A DNA stretch of 64,000 nucleotides, taken from the sequence record MN882349.1. One strand, written 5' to 3'. A program made the position numbers and the translations under genes. Of this stretch, positions 10,140 through 27,591 are shown in pieces. The notes beneath the pieces were generated by a model that was not told the DNA's origin, did not search any database, and was given only the letters and a program-made list of their open reading frames with translations. Every line of letters starts with the position of its first letter. Within the stretch, counting starts at the first letter, position 1. This DNA is from Escherichia phage Ec_Makalu_003.

Positions 10140-10910
10140 ATGAATATTATCCGAATAAAACTACCGGAAGGTGTACAGCGATTTAAACCTTTCACGGTTA
10201 AAGATTACAGAGATTTCCTTCTGGTGTCAACTGAAATTAAGATGAATCCAGAAGAAGAACAAACTATCCTGGATGAGCTACTAGAAGAAATATACCCAGA
10301 CGTAGACCCTGCATTTCGTGAATATATTTTCCTGAACGTTTTTACTAGCTCAATAGGTAAAACAAAGATACCGCTTTGCTTTACTTGCCCGACTTGCAAC
10401 AAAGAAAGAAAAATGTTGCTCAACTTACAGGTCGAAGCACTAAAACCAATCGTTCTGGAGGCCGCAGGGCTTAAAATAACTTTCCGGTATGTGAAACCAT
10501 CAACCGACTATGCAAAAACGTTTCTAGATGCGATAGAGCGTGTATCTGATGGTGTTAATGATTATCTGTGGACTGAATTGCCGGAAGACGTTCGAGATCA
10601 GGTTATTGATTCAATCTCATTTGCTGAATTTGAAGAAGTTGTTAAGCAGATGCACACGATCAAGATCGAACAAAAGATATCTTGTTGTGAAAGTCATGAC
10701 CTAAAATACATAGGTCTTCTTCCATTATTCAAATTGTTGTTGAATCCAGATGAGTTATTCATCTTTTATCGAATAAACCATCTATTGGCAAAATCAAATT
10801 ATTCTATCAGTGATCTTATGGACATGTTACCCGTCGAGAGAAACATTGCACTGACACTGGTCGAGAAAGACGTAAAAGAGGCAAACAATGCAAAGAACGG
10901 GGTTTCCTAA
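10140..10910 (+). CDS. 51: baseplate hub assembly protein gp51
   Basis: 256 aa ORF at the T4 gene 51 position; shares CxxC-NKE and EYIFL segments with gp26. Confidence 0.7.
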   Translation: MNIIRIKLPEGVQRFKPFTVKDYRDFLLVSTEIKMNPEEEQTILDELLEEIYPDVDPAFREYIFLNVFTSSIGKTKIPLCFTCPTCNKERKMLLNLQVEALKPIVLEAAGLKITFRYVKPSTDYAKTFLDAIERVSDGVNDYLWTELPEDVRDQVIDSISFAEFEEVVKQMHTIKIEQKISCCESHDLKYIGLLPLFKLLLNPDELFIFYRINHLLAKSNYSISDLMDMLPVERNIALTLVEKDVKEANNAKNGVS

Positions 10911-21870: not shown

Positions 21871-22112
21871 ATACGCCCCTTTAACCCAACACAGATTTTA
21901 GAAGGTTCTTTGCCGTGCCACATTAAGTAAATTCCGTTAATGCGTCCTTGTTTTGTATATGATTCTTTTCTGATCTTCTTATAGTGTCGTGCTTCCTCAG
22001 CCGATTGTTTAGAATGTCGATCATAAAGGAAGAGGAACAAAGGCCAACCATTAGCGGCCTTAATGCAGTTATTCAAAAATTCCTTATTTCGTTTAATTAA
22101 TTTTCTTTTCAC
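21867..22112 (-). CDS. hypothetical basic protein (81 aa)
   Basis: GTG start overlapping the upstream stop; lysine/arginine rich. Confidence 0.45.
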   Translation of the reverse strand: MKRKLIKRNKEFLNNCIKAANGWPLFLFLYDRHSKQSAEEARHYKKIRKESYTKQGRINGIYLMWHGKEPSKICVGLKGRI

Positions 22113-22360
22113 GCTGCCCCCATTGGTTTGATAGTAACAGAATCTAAAAGACCTTTGTTAGCCAGTTCGCGGCAAGTTTTCAGATCCGCAACTTCCCAGC
22201 CAGCCGCAATAAGGTTATCAATGAGGCTGTTAGCAACTTCTTCGCTCATGAAAGAGCACTGTTTGCCGATGGTGTAGCGTACACGCTGTAATTTCAGTTT
22301 ACGGAAGCCTTTAACGTTCAGGTCTTTAGCGATTTTCTTTGCGGTTTCGATGTTAGCCAT
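22109..22360 (-). CDS. hypothetical protein (83 aa)
   Basis: First gene behind the promoter cassette at 22401-22429. Confidence 0.6.
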   Translation of the reverse strand: MANIETAKKIAKDLNVKGFRKLKLQRVRYTIGKQCSFMSEEVANSLIDNLIAAGWEVADLKTCRELANKGLLDSVTIKPMGAA

Positions 22361-22400
22361 TGTTTGATTCTCCTAAGTGGTATCTCGTCTTGATGGTTGT

Positions 22401-22429
22401 ATTGTAGGGGAGTTATCCTCCCCTGTCAA
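22401..22429 (-). promoter_or_regulatory. early promoter cassette with palindromic spacer GGGGAGGATAACTCCCC
   Basis: TTGACA-17-TACAAT on minus strand. Confidence 0.65.
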
Positions 22430-22443
22430 CACTTTTTATAAAA

Positions 22444-22611
22444 TTATTTGTTAATTTCTGGTGCGTTGCTAGGATAGTAACCTTCTTTAACTCCGAGGTA
22501 TTTTGCAACCATCCCTACAATCTTCTGTGCTACTACAATGTCAAATTTCAGATAATCTTCGCCGTGGGTTTCAATGATATATGCTTCACATGCTGCTTTA
22601 GTCTCGAACAT
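22444..22611 (-). CDS. small hypothetical protein (55 aa), copy 1 of a duplicated gene
   Basis: MFETKAACEAYIIETHGEDYLKFDIVVAQK..., about 87 percent aa identity to 25726-25893. Confidence 0.6.
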   Translation of the reverse strand: MFETKAACEAYIIETHGEDYLKFDIVVAQKIVGMVAKYLGVKEGYYPSNAPEINK

Positions 22612-22644
22612 TTTGATTCTCCTATTTCGTTTCGGTATGTGTGT

Positions 22645-22673
22645 ATTATAGGGGATCTCCCGATCCCCGTCAA
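22645..22673 (-). promoter_or_regulatory. early promoter cassette (TTGACG, GGGGATC-containing spacer, TATAAT)
   Basis: Same cassette type as 20269-20297. Confidence 0.65.
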
Positions 22674-22687
22674 CAACTTTTTTAAAA

Positions 22688-22969
22688 TTATTCGTGATTA
22701 GTTTCGATATTGTGCATTTTGCACCAGTTCAGCCAATCGCCAAGATCTTGATAGTTGATGCTTTTATCTGCTGCCATCGTTTTTGTCTTGATACCCATAT
22801 GTGCGTTATGAGTAAGCATTTTTACAGTGAACTCAATTTTATCGCCTTTAGCTTTAACATCAACCAGTTTGGTCCACTGGCTACCAGCACCGCGAATGTT
22901 CATACCAACGATGTTTCCGATGTATGCTTCTTTGTTGTTCAGGATTTCGGTTGCTTTGATGAATTTCAT
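22688..22969 (-). CDS. hypothetical protein (93 aa)
   Basis: ORF with RBS behind promoter cassette. Confidence 0.6.
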   Translation of the reverse strand: MKFIKATEILNNKEAYIGNIVGMNIRGAGSQWTKLVDVKAKGDKIEFTVKMLTHNAHMGIKTKTMAADKSINYQDLGDWLNWCKMHNIETNHE

Positions 22970-23002
22970 TTTTGATTCTCCAGTTCGTTTCGGTATGGGT
23001 GT

Positions 23003-23031
23003 ATTATGCTATGTTCTTACTTTGGTGTCAA
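23003..23031 (-). promoter_or_regulatory. early promoter cassette (TTGACA-17-CATAAT)
   Basis: Minus-strand consensus elements plus conserved leader. Confidence 0.65.
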
Positions 23032-23039
23032 CAACTTTT

Positions 23040-23309
23040 TTAGATATTTTCAGAAATAAATTTTAAAACTTGACGTAAATGTTTCTCATCTTTGATAGTC
23101 GCCGGAAGTTCTTCTTTTACTTCCTGTGCAAGATAGATATTTCCGTTCCAAGTGAAAGACCCGTCTTCGTTTACGCGATAGCTGAACATCCATTCGCAAT
23201 CATTTTCGATTTCATATACACACAGAAGGGTGTAATCTTCAAAGCTATTGATTTCAAGGTCGAAGCCGTGGCGTTTTGCAAAGTTGGTAGTGGTTTTAGT
23301 CAGTGCCAT
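23040..23309 (-). CDS. hypothetical protein (89 aa)
   Basis: ORF with GGAGAATCAA RBS. Confidence 0.6.
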   Translation of the reverse strand: MALTKTTTNFAKRHGFDLEINSFEDYTLLCVYEIENDCEWMFSYRVNEDGSFTWNGNIYLAQEVKEELPATIKDEKHLRQVLKFISENI

Positions 23310-23349
23310 TGTTTGATTCTCCTAAGTGGTATCTCGTTTCGATGGGTGT

Positions 23350-23378
23350 ATTATGCTATAGGCGTGATCAGGTGTCAA
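23350..23378 (-). promoter_or_regulatory. early promoter cassette (TTGACA-17-CATAAT)
   Basis: Minus-strand consensus elements. Confidence 0.65.
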
Positions 23379-23435
23379 TGCCTTTTTTAAAATTTTATGC
23401 AATAAAAAAGCCGACACTAAGGTCGGCTAATAAAA

Positions 23436-23744
23436 TCATTTAGACAAATAATCATTCAGTGCAATCCGGTCGGCATGTTCCGGCGTTACATCAATCGCAA
23501 TCACTTTAACGCGTGCTTTCTTGCGACCTGGGTTTTCTCGTAACCAGTGCTCATGACCGTGAACATTTTTATACTGCGATGCTTCTTCGAAGGTACGGAT
23601 CGGACCAGGGTAATCAGCGTAAAGGATCTCTAGGTCATCGGTGATGTAAAAATATACGTTGTAATTACTGTTCTCTAGCTTAAGCAGAGACTTTCGGAAC
23701 ATTGGGAGATTTTCGCGGGTAAATTCAAAAGTAATATCTTTCAT
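23436..23744 (-). CDS. small protein, member 1 of HxHW paralog family
   Basis: Start at MKDITFEF with GAGGA RBS; motifs VYFYITDD...HGHEHW...VIAIDV. Confidence 0.6.
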   Translation of the reverse strand: MKDITFEFTRENLPMFRKSLLKLENSNYNVYFYITDDLEILYADYPGPIRTFEEASQYKNVHGHEHWLRENPGRKKARVKVIAIDVTPEHADRIALNDYLSK

Positions 23745-23793
23745 AGTATTATCCTCAATAGTTGGATGAAAAGGGGGCTTAACGCCCCATATA

Positions 23794-24081
23794 TTAAAAC
23801 AGTCCTTCCTGTACACCGTAGTAGAGTTCGTCGCTGATAATTTCATTAATGCGACGGTGTGCATATTCCTGATTTGCGAAGTTGTCAGCAAGTTCTACTT
23901 TAGTTTCACCGTCATGAGTCCATTTAGTGATAACTTTACCATCTGCAAATTTGAAGTTGAACTCTTTAGCTACTGCATCGCGTACCAGACGTGCGAACTT
24001 GTTGTTACGGATTGCATTATCGGTTTCGTGTGCAGCGTGAGCAAATTTGTTAACTTTCAGAGTGATAGTGATGTATGCCAT
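23794..24081 (-). CDS. hypothetical protein (95 aa)
   Basis: ORF with AGGAGAATCAA RBS behind promoter cassette. Confidence 0.6.
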   Translation of the reverse strand: MAYITITLKVNKFAHAAHETDNAIRNNKFARLVRDAVAKEFNFKFADGKVITKWTHDGETKVELADNFANQEYAHRRINEIISDELYYGVQEGLF

Positions 24082-24127
24082 AATTTGATTCTCCTAGTTA
24101 GAAAGTGTATCTCGTTTCGATGGGTGT

Positions 24128-24156
24128 ATTATGCTATACACCCGATCTTATGTCAA
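24128..24156 (-). promoter_or_regulatory. early promoter cassette (TTGACA-17-CATAAT)
   Basis: Minus-strand consensus elements. Confidence 0.65.
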
Positions 24157-24163
24157 CACTTTT

Positions 24164-24442
24164 TTATAAAATAATTTTTTGATATTTTTCTATGATGTTT
24201 GTGTAATCCACATCAACCGCTATCACCGTTGCTTCGAATCCACCGTTTAGCCAATGGCTATGGTCATGATCGTGAAAGAAACCAAGACCAGTACGAAGAC
24301 CTTCTTTATATTCGGCGCGTACATTTAGATCATCATCGATAAACAGATAAAACCATGAATTTTTACTAGGATTGATGATACAACCTTTCAGATTAGGGAG
24401 AATATCACGACTAAGAATAAACTTATCACCTACTTTGAACAT
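24164..24442 (-). CDS. small protein, member 2 of HxHW paralog family
   Basis: Start MFKVGDKF with GAGGA RBS; motifs FYLFIDDD...HDHSHW...VIAVDV. Confidence 0.6.
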   Translation of the reverse strand: MFKVGDKFILSRDILPNLKGCIINPSKNSWFYLFIDDDLNVRAEYKEGLRTGLGFFHDHDHSHWLNGGFEATVIAVDVDYTNIIEKYQKIIL

Positions 24443-24446
24443 AATA

Positions 24447-24767
24447 TTAGTCCTCACTTATAAGGTCAAACCAATTGTTTTTCGCATAATGCTTAATGCG
24501 TGCTTGATCTGCTTCCGCTGGTGATAGATTCCATGCAACCACTACAACTTCTGACGCGTCGTCATCCGTTTCTGATACCCAATGATTGTGATTCATACAG
24601 TTATTTGCGATCGAGTGAGCAAATGATTTCATCACTGGAGACGTATAATCATAGTAACGGATTTTCAGATTTTCATCAACATACAAGTAGATCGTATAAG
24701 GTTTATATTCAGTAACCAGTAACAGACAGTTACGCAATTCTGGGAAAATCTTTTTAGTTAATTTCAT
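24447..24767 (-). CDS. small protein, member 3 of HxHW paralog family
   Basis: Start MKLTKKIF with GAGGAT RBS; motifs IYLYVDEN...NHNHW...VVVVAWN. Confidence 0.55.
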   Translation of the reverse strand: MKLTKKIFPELRNCLLLVTEYKPYTIYLYVDENLKIRYYDYTSPVMKSFAHSIANNCMNHNHWVSETDDDASEVVVVAWNLSPAEADQARIKHYAKNNWFDLISED

Positions 24768-24768
24768 T

Positions 24769-24987
24769 TTATAATCCTCGGTCGCGGCTATAGTACACGG
24801 TACGCCATACAATTTCATGTTTCGTGTCGCTCCAGCACACGATCTCATTTACTCTTAAATCTTTGTTATCAACAAAAGATGAACATTGTGACGCTTCTTT
24901 CATCATTTTATCTGCTGTTTTCTCATCAAATACAGCACAGATTTCTTTATACACTCGATAATCTTTGAATTGACTCTGGATACCCAT
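24769..24987 (-). CDS. small hypothetical protein, tandem paralog of 24947-25204
   Basis: SQFKDYRVYKEICAVFDEKTADKMMKEASQC versus SKFKDYKAYQQILRVYDAEFAEKMMEDASKC. Confidence 0.5.
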   Translation of the reverse strand: MGIQSQFKDYRVYKEICAVFDEKTADKMMKEASQCSSFVDNKDLRVNEIVCWSDTKHEIVWRTVYYSRDRGL

Positions 24988-25204
24988 AATTAACACCATT
25001 CCAACCAATTGTTTTTGAGAAAACGTTTATCCACTGTTGAGTGTAGCATGTTTCTTTCCATGATACAATACGAGTAGAATAATGGTTTTTGTTTCCAGAA
25101 AAGGACGGGCATTTTGATGCATCTTCCATCATCTTTTCGGCGAACTCCGCGTCATATACCCGCAGGATCTGTTGATATGCTTTATAATCTTTAAATTTGC
25201 TCAT
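24947..25204 (-). CDS. small hypothetical protein, tandem paralog of 24769-24987
   Basis: 85 aa ORF; 3' end overlaps the start of its paralog. Confidence 0.5.
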   Translation of the reverse strand: MSKFKDYKAYQQILRVYDAEFAEKMMEDASKCPSFSGNKNHYSTRIVSWKETCYTQQWINVFSKTIGWNGVNYGYPESIQRLSSV

Positions 25205-25469
25205 AATTGTTAACTACCTTATCAGCTTCTTTTATTGTTTTTACATCAACTGCGATAATCCGTAAAGGTTCGTCGAAGGTCCACCAGTGGTCATGAATAT
25301 CAGCTTGTGATTTATCACCAAAGGAATCACGAATATCATTTTTACATTTATAGCTAATATGGCCTTCATAGTCAACATAAAGGTAATTATCGAAAATCGG
25401 AGTTTTTAAGATCATACCGAAAAATCTTTCTTTGTGTGTCTTATCAAGTGTTGCAGTAATTCGCATCAT
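25191..25469 (-). CDS. small protein, member 4 of HxHW paralog family
   Basis: AAGAGGA RBS; motifs YLYVDYEG...IHDHWW...IIAVDV. Confidence 0.6.
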   Translation of the reverse strand: MMRITATLDKTHKERFFGMILKTPIFDNYLYVDYEGHISYKCKNDIRDSFGDKSQADIHDHWWTFDEPLRIIAVDVKTIKEADKVVNNYEQI

Positions 25470-25481
25470 AATATATTCCTC

Positions 25482-25661
25482 TTAGAAAGGGATGGTCATT
25501 TCTTGAGCTTGTACATTCTCGTTAGGATTAAACTTCATCCAACCGATATTGTCTACCAGCATATGTACATTTTTATCATATCCTACGTGAGTAGTCAACA
25601 CTAAATGTGCTTTACCTTCAACGATGATTTCCATGTACTTCTGAACTTCGATAGCTTTCAT
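25482..25661 (-). CDS. small hypothetical protein (59 aa)
   Basis: ATG with GGAGAATCAA RBS behind promoter cassette 25694-25722. Confidence 0.5.
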   Translation of the reverse strand: MKAIEVQKYMEIIVEGKAHLVLTTHVGYDKNVHMLVDNIGWMKFNPNENVQAQEMTIPF

Positions 25662-25693
25662 TTTGATTCTCCGTTTGTTGTCTTGATGGGAGT

Positions 25694-25722
25694 ATCTTAC
25701 TACTCCCTTTAATCATTGTCAA
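25694..25722 (-). promoter_or_regulatory. early promoter cassette (TTGACA-17-TAAGAT)
   Basis: Minus-strand elements; spacer contains GGGAGTAG...ACTCCC-like palindrome. Confidence 0.6.
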
Positions 25723-25725
25723 CTA

Positions 25726-25893
25726 TTATTTGTTAATTTCTGGTGCGTTGCTCGGATAGTAACCTTCTTTAACACCCAGATATTTTGCAACCATTCCGGT
25801 GATCTTCTGTGCTACTACGATATCGAATTTCAGGTAGTCTTCACCGTGGTTTGCTACAATGTATGCTTCGCATTCTGCTTTAGTCTGGAACAT
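25726..25893 (-). CDS. small hypothetical protein (55 aa), copy 2 of a duplicated gene
   Basis: MFQTKAECEAYIVANHGEDYLKFDIVVAQK...; about 85 percent nt identity with 22444-22611. Confidence 0.6.
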   Translation of the reverse strand: MFQTKAECEAYIVANHGEDYLKFDIVVAQKITGMVAKYLGVKEGYYPSNAPEINK

Positions 25894-25927
25894 TTTTGAT
25901 TCTCCTATATCTCGTTGGTATGTGTGC

Positions 25928-25956
25928 ATTATAGGGGATCACCGATCCCCTGTCAA
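25928..25956 (-). promoter_or_regulatory. early promoter cassette with palindromic spacer GGGGATCACCGATCCCC
   Basis: TTGACA-17-TATAAT on minus strand. Confidence 0.7.
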
Positions 25957-25961
25957 CAACT

Positions 25962-26255
25962 TTATAATGCTTTATACGCGTATTTCATAAATTTGTCTGC
26001 CACTTCATTGGCATGTTCAGATTCTACGCCTGATTCGAGAACAATAGCTAGGTCGGTTTCGTCATTCCCGCCGTACCAATGATTTGATGTTCGATTTTTT
26101 TCAATTGGAAATTGGTCACTTTTATCTGTGCGACAAAATACATCTAAATGCTCGTCGATGTAAAAGATCCAATCTTCATAAAGAATAACGGTATTAGCAA
26201 GATTTTTATTGCCTTCAACGAAAGGTTCCGCGACAAATAGCTTAGTTTGTTCCAT
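25962..26255 (-). CDS. small protein, member 5 of HxHW paralog family (divergent)
   Basis: Start MEQTKLF with GAGGAA RBS; motifs IFYIDEHLD...SNHWYG...AIVLESGV. Confidence 0.5.
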   Translation of the reverse strand: MEQTKLFVAEPFVEGNKNLANTVILYEDWIFYIDEHLDVFCRTDKSDQFPIEKNRTSNHWYGGNDETDLAIVLESGVESEHANEVADKFMKYAYKAL

Positions 26256-26271
26256 AGTAATTTCCTCAAAA

Positions 26272-26463
26272 TTATACAGTTTCGTAAACTTCCCAATGTT
26301 CAGCGCCAACACGCTTAACGAAAAGGTTTTCTTTGATGTTATTCATAAACGTCTGGATGGATTTAATGCGGTTTGAAGGTTTCCATTCTTCGTTGGCATT
26401 GCGTCGATACATCATAACATTACCAGTTCGCTTATATTCAGCAACCATTTTAAGACCACACAT
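26272..26463 (-). CDS. hypothetical protein (63 aa)
   Basis: ATG with GAGGATAAT RBS. Confidence 0.55.
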   Translation of the reverse strand: MCGLKMVAEYKRTGNVMMYRRNANEEWKPSNRIKSIQTFMNNIKENLFVKRVGAEHWEVYETV

Positions 26464-26520: not shown

Positions 26521-26841
26521 TCACACAAAATGGCGTGTCAATGCTTCTTTTGCGGTTCCGCTAAGACTTTCAATCTCGCCTGGCATAACATCAACCGCCA
26601 GAACTTCTACAACATCTTCGGACCCTAACCAGTGAGTATGGCCTTTGTAGAACTTGATAACCAGACCACCTTCCTCGTCCCATTTAACGCTATCGCTAGC
26701 CCACCACACATCACCGTCGATAAAGTTGATGTAAAGCACACTACGCCACATTGAATTAATTACTTTCAATACTGCGCCTTTCATCTCTTCCACGGTATGG
26801 TCTTCCATTTTGAAGACCTCACCTACCTGAACTTTTGCCAT
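26521..26841 (-). CDS. small protein, member 6 of HxHW paralog family
   Basis: Motifs LYINFIDGD...GHTHW...VLAVDV. Confidence 0.6.
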   Translation of the reverse strand: MAKVQVGEVFKMEDHTVEEMKGAVLKVINSMWRSVLYINFIDGDVWWASDSVKWDEEGGLVIKFYKGHTHWLGSEDVVEVLAVDVMPGEIESLSGTAKEALTRHFV

Positions 26842-27038: not shown

Positions 27039-27072
27039 AATTGATTCTCCTAGTTCGTTTCGGTATGTGTGC

Positions 27073-27101
27073 AGTATAGGGGATCGCCGATCCCCTGTCA
27101 A
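27073..27101 (-). promoter_or_regulatory. early promoter cassette with palindromic spacer GGGGATCGCCGATCCCC
   Basis: TTGACA-17-TATACT on minus strand; near-identical to the cassette at 20269-20297. Confidence 0.7.
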
Positions 27102-27114
27102 CAACTTTTTTGAA

Positions 27115-27591
27115 TTATTTTTCTTGATGCTCGCGCTCGTACTTTTCGAAATAAAATTCTACTGGCTGATCGTGGATTGAAAGCAAGCCAAAGCGTTTAG
27201 CCGCACGTAATCCCATGTTACGTTGAATGTACTTCTGGAAGTTCTCGCGTATACACTTACGCCAGTATTCTAAGCCCATACAGCTTTTGTAAAGATTGCA
27301 TTGCACACAAGCCGGATTCATGTTGTCAAGTATATCGTGCTCCGGTTTATGCATTCCTACAACCTTATACTTCCACGATCCATCATCATTACGGGCAATT
27401 CGTCCATTTTCATCATAGACTACTTTTGAGCGTCGCAATACTGGTTTGATGTGGTCTGCGTGCCAGCGATCCCCTAGTTCCTCGCCACAATAGGCACAAC
27501 GCCCACCGTATTTCATTTTCAGGATCTGGCGTTGCTCTTTCTTTGACAATTTTTTAGGTTTAGGGGCTTTCGCCCCTTCATTATCACACAT
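27115..27591 (-). CDS. HNH endonuclease
   Basis: CAYCG...HADHIKP...NMNPACVQCN: canonical HNH CxxC / H-x-DH / N / CxxC arrangement; start overlaps the ligase stop. Confidence 0.8.
   Translation of the reverse strand: MCDNEGAKAPKPKKLSKKEQRQILKMKYGGRCAYCGEELGDRWHADHIKPVLRRSKVVYDENGRIARNDDGSWKYKVVGMHKPEHDILDNMNPACVQCNLYKSCMGLEYWRKCIRENFQKYIQRNMGLRAAKRFGLLSIHDQPVEFYFEKYEREHQEK

Follow-up and report, generated by a model that had tools for sequence, protein, structure and literature searches.

The question raised by this locus is whether two small genes of almost the same sequence, lying 3.3 kb apart in direct orientation, act as sites at which a phage shuffles its gene modules. The DNA analysed, called the window in the following, is a stretch of 64,000 nucleotides (nt) from Escherichia phage Ec_Makalu_003 (sequence record MN882349.1). 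A first-pass annotation, made from the sequence alone, had taken the two genes for substrates of homologous recombination and for the footprint of a cassette-mediated shuffling of modules. According to the comparisons reported here, the two genes are very probably paralogous cassettes in hyperplastic region 3 (HPR3), each a promoter-early stem-loop (PeSL) plus an ORFan, which recombine in direct orientation to delete or convert sequence and which are orthologues of open reading frames (ORFs) 191 and 205 of phage RB49.

The window belongs to a Krischvirus, i.e. an RB49-like T4-type phage of the Straboviridae. The identity of positions 22000-26400 was 99.7% to Escherichia phage Ec_Makalu_001 and 92-98% to about 57 further Krischvirus records. 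The locus is flanked by alt on one side and the DNA ligase gp30 on the other; it is HPR3, orthologous to the ORF191/ORF205 region of RB49. Its topology is phi1-like, with ORF192, ORF195/196, ORF210 and ORF211 missing. The two genes are:

22444..22611, minus strand: copy A, a 55-amino-acid ORF (MFETKAACEAY...), orthologue of RB49 ORF191 (RB49p191) and phi1 ORF191; taken from the ORF listing and annotated as a coding sequence in Makalu_001, RB49 and Phi1; match to phrog_8009 with E = 7e-38.
25726..25893, minus strand: copy B, a 55-amino-acid ORF (MFQTKAECEAY...), orthologue of RB49 ORF205 (RB49p205); match to phrog_8009 with E = 1e-38.

The ORF listing extends copy B to 25726-25929 owing to an in-frame upstream ATG; Makalu_001 and RB49 are annotated with the ATG at 25893 as the start, and a GGAG lies 8 nt upstream of it. 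Near-identical proteins, a nucleotide identity of about 85% and a distance of 3.3 kb in direct orientation had been claimed, and the exact values agree: 24 of 168 nt differ (85.7% identity), 49 of 55 amino acids are identical (BLASTP, E = 1e-37) and the two starts are 3282 nt apart in the same orientation.

The repeat is longer than the genes. When the window was compared with itself by BLAST, a single 240-nt alignment was obtained between the following units (85.8% identity, 269 bits, E = 2e-72), which were also delimited by a repeat search:

22443..22680, minus strand: repeat unit A, a whole PeSL + ORF cassette of about 240 nt.
25725..25963, minus strand: repeat unit B, a whole PeSL + ORF cassette of about 240 nt.

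No other internal repeat in the 64 kb comes close to this pair: all others are at most 98 nt long, and all of them are promoter cassettes. Chance similarity between the copies is ruled out by the E-value. Co-linearity reaches about 72 nt upstream of the ATG, where it starts at AAAGTTGTTGAC, and runs through the -35 box, the hairpin, the -10 box and the Shine-Dalgarno (SD) sequence. Homology ends at the stop codon and the 3' flanks of the two copies are unrelated. The identity is thus above the value of about 70% below which the first-pass annotation would have given up the repeat, and the co-linearity goes beyond the coding part, through the promoter.

PeSL cassettes were defined at HPR3 of RB49 and phi1 by Arbiol et al. 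(2010, Genome Biol Evol 2:140; PMC2839356). The promoter cassettes of the two copies and those bounding the repeat units at their 3' ends are:

22612..22687, minus strand: PeSL193/191, promoter cassette of copy A, with an AT-rich tract, -35 box TTGACG (22673-22668), hairpin GGGGATCGGGAGATCCCC (22668-22651), -10 box TATAAT (22650-22645) and SD GGAG (about 22622-22619).
25894..25961, minus strand: PeSL206/205, promoter cassette of copy B, with -35 box TTGACA (25956-25951), hairpin GGGGATCGGTGATCCCC (25950-25934), -10 box TATAAT (25933-25928) and SD (about 25906-25902).
22361..22443, minus strand: PeSL191/190, 3' of copy A, with the other hairpin subtype GGGGAGGATAACTCCCC, 11/12 in the promoter scan and a fold of -19.4 kcal/mol (z = -4.9); 3' boundary of repeat unit A.
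25662..25725, minus strand: PeSL205/204, 3' of copy B, with -35 box TTGACA (25722-25717) 3 nt past the stop codon and 10/12 in the promoter scan; 3' boundary of repeat unit B.

The promoter scan gave a match to the σ70 consensus of 12/12 for copy B and 11/12 for copy A, each with a 17-nt spacer, and found nine promoters of at least 11/12 within 7.9 kb, all on the minus strand. In both cassettes, a 7-8 bp GGGGATC/GATCCCC stem fills the spacer that separates the -35 box from the -10 box, as in the commonest PeSL subclass, and the RNA folding energy is -14.9 kcal/mol (z = -2.5) for the cassette of copy A and -17.8 kcal/mol (z = -3.7) for that of copy B. Upstream of the -35 box an AT-rich tract is found (TAATTTTAAAAAAGTTGTTGAC in copy A, AAAGCATTATAAAGTTGTTGAC in copy B), and the stop codons of ORF193 and ORF206 lie less than 20 nt from the -35 boxes of copies A and B, respectively. 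The SD/start sequence GGAGAATCAAAATG is common to both copies. The 76 nt before the ATG in PeSL206/205 are identical in the window and RB49, and PeSL193/191 of the window aligns with RB49 PeSL192/191 from the -35 box to the ATG. At the level of sequence, all defining features of a PeSL + ORFan cassette are present in both copies, and the shuffling cassettes proposed by the first-pass annotation correspond to the published PeSL elements (PMC2839356).

The same annotation had described a shared cassette as following each copy. This holds on the plus strand; the genes are on the minus strand, and in gene sense the cassette is their upstream promoter. Furthermore, five hairpins of the type GGGATC...GATCCC are present in the window (20276, 22652, 25935, 27080 and 61123) against 0.01 expected by chance, so that this type of cassette is not confined to the two copies. 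One of the five is situated in a different variable region near 61 kb, and all of them hold two GATC (Dam methylation) sites within the promoter spacer. PeSL206/205, the promoter of copy B, was reported to be strong in a lacZ fusion (about 13,000 Miller units; the source phage of the clone is not stated), and the GGGGAT-type hairpin of PeSL211/210 to terminate about as well as rrnB T1, being the only PeSL hairpin with reported termination (PMC2839356). The latter hairpin, GGGGATCACGTATCCCC, is of the same type as the hairpins of the two copies. A simple terminator scan called neither copy's hairpin as a terminator, and no T-run follows them.

The presence of each copy in relatives was surveyed with tblastn in 58 Krischvirus records. 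Comparative work used GenBank phage records, a scan of IMG/VR gave two loci, and junctions were analysed from DNA alignments. Both copies were found in 51 of the 58 records (88%). Cognac and FL04 have the A-type protein only, and MIZ4, MIZ5, JK32, Brandy and UPWr_E1 the B-type only. The following neighbours are concerned:

22688..25661, minus strand: module between the two copies, made up of ten small early ORFs which are homologous to RB49/phi1 ORF193, ORF194 and ORF197-204.
25962..26255, minus strand: homologue of ORF206 and upstream neighbour of copy B, found next to the single copy in Cognac and FL04.
22109..22360, minus strand: homologue of ORF190 and downstream neighbour of copy A, which in Cognac and FL04 borders on the single copy.

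ORF206, a single copy and ORF190 are contiguous in Cognac and FL04, the sole two of the 58 records so arranged. Neither genome has the 3-kb module anywhere (6% coverage, all of it from cassette-sized matches), and the remaining 56 records contain it. This whole-genome comparison rules out that the module was moved elsewhere in Cognac or FL04. To assign the remaining copies, 32 sites fixed between reference sets of A and B copies (positions -75 to +172) were scored. The single copy of FL04 is B-type at two sites and A-type at all that follow; the class changes between -58 and -51, within the hairpin. The single copy of Cognac is B-type down to -15 and A-type from -3, with the switch in the interval between SD and ATG. 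Both are chimeric, with the side of copy B upstream and that of copy A downstream. Comparing relatives for the intervening 3 kb had been suggested by the first-pass annotation, and the outcome is the one expected if the repeats recombine. The flanks of Cognac are RB49-like (ORF206 and ORF211), and FL04 has a Phi1-like variant of ORF206. As crossover points and flanks differ between the two phages, two independent events are involved. The single copies are clean block chimeras of the diverged alleles of today, which indicates deletion from a two-copy ancestor and not an ancestral single copy.

Two other explanations of the single-copy genomes were considered here. The arrangement of Cognac and FL04 could be ancestral, the two-copy genomes having arisen by insertion of the module together with a second copy, with the repeats as the insertion scar. 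PeSL exchange is described as reversible (PMC2839356), siphovirus outgroup homologues share more with the A type (72-74% amino acid identity) than with the B type (68%), and the single copies both belong to the A type, all of which would suit an ancestral single copy. However, an ancestral copy should not switch class in blocks, let alone at differing points; the different flanks of Cognac and FL04 indicate independent events; the A side of Cognac is 97.9% identical to the two-copy phages ECD7 and Whisky; and 51 of the 58 records have two copies. This polarity is therefore considered very unlikely. A collapse of the repeat during assembly is hardly credible: repeats can mislead assemblers, but these are only 86% identical, 3 kb of unique sequence are missing from complete genomes, and the two records, whose junctions differ, stem from separate laboratories.

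Deletion, the reading adopted, is seen elsewhere at the locus as well, between PeSLs. In JK32, Brandy and UPWr_E1, the cassette of copy A alone is lost, and what remains at the junction is a chimeric PeSL, of 193/191 sequence up to and including the -10 box and of 191/190 sequence thereafter. Larger deletions which include copy A were found in MIZ4 and in an IMG/VR contig. Indels bounded by one chimeric PeSL were found in Cognac, FL04, JK32, Brandy, UPWr_E1, MIZ4 and the window itself (ORF210 cassette). Further indels within the module make the spacing of the copies vary between about 3.26 and 4.33 kb among two-copy genomes. Inverse polymerase chain reaction (PCR) in RB49 had yielded circles with ORF191-194 and ORF192-193, with crossovers between the -10 box and the ATG or in the hairpin loop (PMC2839356); the crossover zones mapped in Cognac and FL04 are the same.

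Some of these indels have particular features. In MIZ4 (10675-10780), copy A through ORF186 is missing, and the junction PeSL consists of the B-type hairpin GGGGATCGGTGATCCCC and the -10 box TATAATG, fused to the 3' part of PeSL186/185; this composition suggests more than one exchange. The metagenomic Krischvirus contig IMGVR_UViG_3300045988_033703 (6001-8489) has kept copy B, and ORF199 through ORF190 including copy A are apparently missing; going by ORF sizes, the ORF189.1/189 methyltransferase comes next after the ORF200 region. The contig looks like one more deletion variant, and its boundaries are not obviously at PeSLs. At 27054-27128, the window is without a 397-bp segment (ORF210 plus one PeSL) found in the otherwise 99.5% identical Makalu_001, and a single PeSL is left. 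The absent segment matches the ~400-bp '210L' mini-circle which Arbiol et al. obtained by inverse PCR. ORF210 is also absent from JK32, Brandy and UPWr_E1.

Exchange between the copies was also found without loss of the module. In each of the five two-copy genomes that were examined (window, RB49, Phi1, KFS-EC and ECD7), the A class and the B class remain separate, and isolated A-type bases occur at 2-4 of the 32 sites in some B copies (Phi1, ECD7 and MIZ4). In copy B of Brandy, six consecutive A-type sites (+51 to +75) lie between B-type sites, which delimits a tract of 25-48 nt; going by this pattern, the tract is a gene conversion, carried by a genome that is now without copy A. Further, the last 48 nt of the ORF (its 3' third) have no fixed A/B difference. 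At third codon positions, 1 of 15 sites differs between A and B in this part and 16 of 40 in the rest (Fisher p = 0.02). A constraint at the nucleotide level was judged unlikely as the cause of this near-identity, because sites of the 3' third are polymorphic within each class; one polymorphism is common to both. This evidence is modest and suggests a recurrent homogenisation of the 3' end of the ORF. Taken together, the conversion tract, the shared 3' polymorphisms and the two independent deletions, with crossovers clustered at hairpin and SD, indicate that the pair is still exchanging sequence.

The copies nevertheless persist as two versions. Between A and B, 17 substitutions are synonymous and 7 non-synonymous, which gives a synonymous divergence (dS) of 0.84, a non-synonymous divergence (dN) of 0.055 and a dN/dS of 0.066; by these values, the copies are paralogues under strong purifying selection. 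An A-type protein at least 96.4% identical was found in 53 of the 58 records (100% identical to that of the window in 43), and a B-type protein at least 96.4% identical in 56 (100% identical in 44). As dN/dS is low, the classes stay distinct and the proteins are conserved across records, the A/B split is old and both versions are selectively maintained. Either copy can nevertheless be lost, as the records without an A-type or a B-type protein show. Strong purifying selection on two versions which are distinct across the genus suggests that these are two accessory early proteins and not redundant with each other. Judged by analogy to other hyperplastic-region genes, the 55-amino-acid proteins may have a role in host interaction.

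It follows to ask whether the pair is kept for dosage or sub-function only, the repeat having no real role in rearrangement and the variation being due to unrelated PeSL-PeSL events. The strong purifying selection and the presence of both copies in 88% of the records fit such functional paralogues; the crossovers of Cognac and FL04 are in the PeSL part, and PeSL-only deletions are common at the locus. On the other hand, both independent 3.3-kb deletions paired exactly these two cassettes among at least nine near-consensus promoters in 8 kb, and the Brandy tract and the shared 3' polymorphisms are inside the coding repeat. On balance, we consider a repeat without such a role unlikely.

Regarding the origin of the pair, ectopic insertion of a PeSL cassette is the most likely source of the second copy, because the duplication comprises one PeSL + ORF exactly, with its two ends in the AT-rich/-35 zone of a PeSL. 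In the PeSL cycle, excision has been demonstrated and insertion has so far only been postulated. It is a tentative idea that the pair is a preserved product of this insertion half, i.e. a mini-circle or an imported cassette re-integrated at an ectopic PeSL. The exchange still going on between the copies, with its clustered crossovers, could then be a targeted one at the GGGGATC hairpin, effected by a dedicated DNA-binding factor and not by plain homology. Alternatively, the second copy could be a xenologue, i.e. a diverged PeSL + ORF cassette taken over from a different phage in a co-infection. The A-B dS of 0.84 is far above the orthologue divergence of about 0-5% within the genus, the family also occurs in unrelated siphoviruses (swi2, SeSz-2, D10, Sasha and Bas82) and hence moves between phage lineages, and the mini-circle model proposes such a transfer of cassettes between phages (PMC2839356). 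However, no donor with an A-like or B-like cassette is known outside Krischvirus, both promoter cassettes are typical Krischvirus GGGGATC PeSLs, and an old duplication within the genome explains the same data. An import is thus possible but doubtful, and it would alter the origin of the pair only, not its present working.

Several points weigh against a pair of active recombination sites as described above. With 86% identity and a longest perfect match of 28 nt (+142 to +169), the repeats are, as far as sequence goes, a poor recombination substrate, which weakens the 'ready substrate' of the first-pass annotation and fits the rarity of the 3.3-kb deletion (2/58). Both crossovers of this deletion fall outside the ORF body, in the PeSL or at the ORF's 5' edge; what the coding duplication contributes on top of the PeSLs, which alone delete elsewhere (excision of copy A, loss of ORF210), may therefore be small. 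The direction, i.e. deletion and not insertion, is read from the block-chimeric junctions, not from a genome phylogeny. The nucleotide-level comparison covered 17 copies. Concerning the protein, no match was found in Pfam, PADLOC or a PDB profile search; a profile search of 1.84 billion representative proteins gave about three true relatives plus low-complexity noise; and the AlphaFold2 model, built from a shallow alignment, is weak (predicted local distance difference test, pLDDT, of 66), with helices at residues 5-16 and 18-39 and a disordered tail.

The PHROGs match is to an unnamed family, phrog_8009. A search of 5.8 billion proteins returned 5 clusters, two of which resemble chimeric or extended gene calls. 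Beyond Krischvirus, the family has few members, all in siphoviruses (Sergei and the five named above). According to the model, the protein is small and mostly helical; its C-terminal tail GVKEGYYPSNAPEINK is predicted to be disordered yet is invariant, which makes it a candidate docking motif. A 73-amino-acid predicted protein from an ENA metagenome (P0005), in which the first 22 residues of copy B are fused to a histidine-kinase ATPase fragment (PF02518), is probably a chimeric assembly and not a real fusion.

The recombining pair of PeSL + ORFan cassettes, which remains the preferred explanation, would work as follows. Each ~240-bp unit would be a self-contained early transcription unit on the minus strand, consisting of an AT-rich tract, a σ70 promoter, a hairpin in the 17-nt spacer, an SD and a 55-codon ORF. 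According to the published PeSL model, host RNA polymerase would fire the promoter immediately after infection, and the same hairpin, when transcribed from upstream, would attenuate read-through; in the window phage, both promoters presumably fire early. The recombination system of the phage, presumably a general one of T4 type, would pair the direct cassettes across 3.3 kb. Crossing-over would remove ten accessory genes and leave one chimeric cassette, whereas shorter exchanges would yield patches of gene conversion. Neighbouring PeSLs would recombine likewise and could excise the cassette of copy A alone.

The strict H.HW motif was found in five small minus-strand ORFs (23436-23747, 24164-24442, 24447-24770, 25191-25469 and 26521-26841), four of which lie between the copies and one outside, so that the copies do bracket most of this family, as had been claimed. 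ORF206 carries a looser SNHW motif. Three of the H.HW/SNHW set match phrog_9345, and no credible Pfam match was obtained for the H.HW ORFs. In addition to the four H.HW proteins, the module includes the tandem paralogues ORF201/202, whose homologues (24769-24987 and 24947-25204, minus strand) overlap and share 43% amino acid identity over 61 residues (E = 1e-17); this pair is a third paralogue family in the same hyperplastic region. Three further near-consensus promoters are situated inside the module (23031, 23378 and 24156), as is one terminator:

23428-23409, minus strand: canonical intrinsic terminator, AGCCGACCTTAGTGTCGGCT plus a subsequent T-run, situated between the homologues of ORF197 and ORF194.

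At the position of this terminator, RB49 has the additional ORF195/196/196.1.

For annotation, two 'hypothetical proteins' gain a context as paralogous early PeSL cassettes which are individually dispensable, and the ORF193-204 block, its four H.HW proteins included, is not essential. Diverged cassettes 3.3 kb apart have recombined at least twice in nature, removing ten accessory genes. The mechanism itself, PeSL shuffling, has been known since 2010, and the observation is an independent rediscovery at its type locus; the PeSL model thus predicts correctly in genomes sequenced independently of the original study. Incremental additions to it are the paralogy, the deletions of Cognac and FL04 and the Brandy tract. 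A text search of Arbiol et al. (2010) and Comeau et al. (2014) for 'paralog' and 'duplicat' gave no mention of the ORF191/ORF205 paralogy, and no account of the Cognac/FL04 deletions or the Brandy tract was found in either paper.

Compared with the published PeSL + ORFan cassettes (Arbiol et al. 2010; Comeau et al. 2014), the locus is the same (HPR3; ORF191, ORF205 and PeSL206/205), and so are the parts: AT-rich tract, consensus σ70 boxes 17 nt apart, a G(n)...C(n) hairpin, SD and ATG. Likewise, chimeric PeSLs delimit the indels in relatives, and the crossovers lie either in the hairpin or between the -10 box and the ATG. In contrast to the published cases, the homology here spans about 240 nt (PeSL + ORF) instead of about 100 nt (PeSL only), the deletion is 3.3 kb long compared with circles of 0.4-1.5 kb, and gene conversion between cassettes was seen. 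Lambdoid morons (Hendrix et al. 2000, as discussed in PMC2839356) are also single accessory genes with their own promoter and terminator placed between other genes; here, the conserved regulatory cassette is itself the recombination site. With integron gene cassettes, an analogy drawn by the PeSL authors (PMC2839356), the elements share small promoter-associated ORF cassettes, a circular intermediate and a conserved site of insertion and excision, but neither an integrase nor an attC-type site is present and general homologous recombination of T4 type is presumed. Finally, from a hyperplastic region of T4 itself, groups of small early ORFs that are non-essential are lost by direct-repeat deletions, with exchange at short G/C-rich inverted repeats beside early promoters (the GGGC/GCCC motifs of Mosig et al. 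1998 and the IP loci of Repoila et al. 1994, both cited in PMC2839356). The T4 elements are analogues and not homologues of the cassettes described here: their early promoters are of T4 type, their hairpins are AT-rich and weaker, and a duplicated ORF is lacking.

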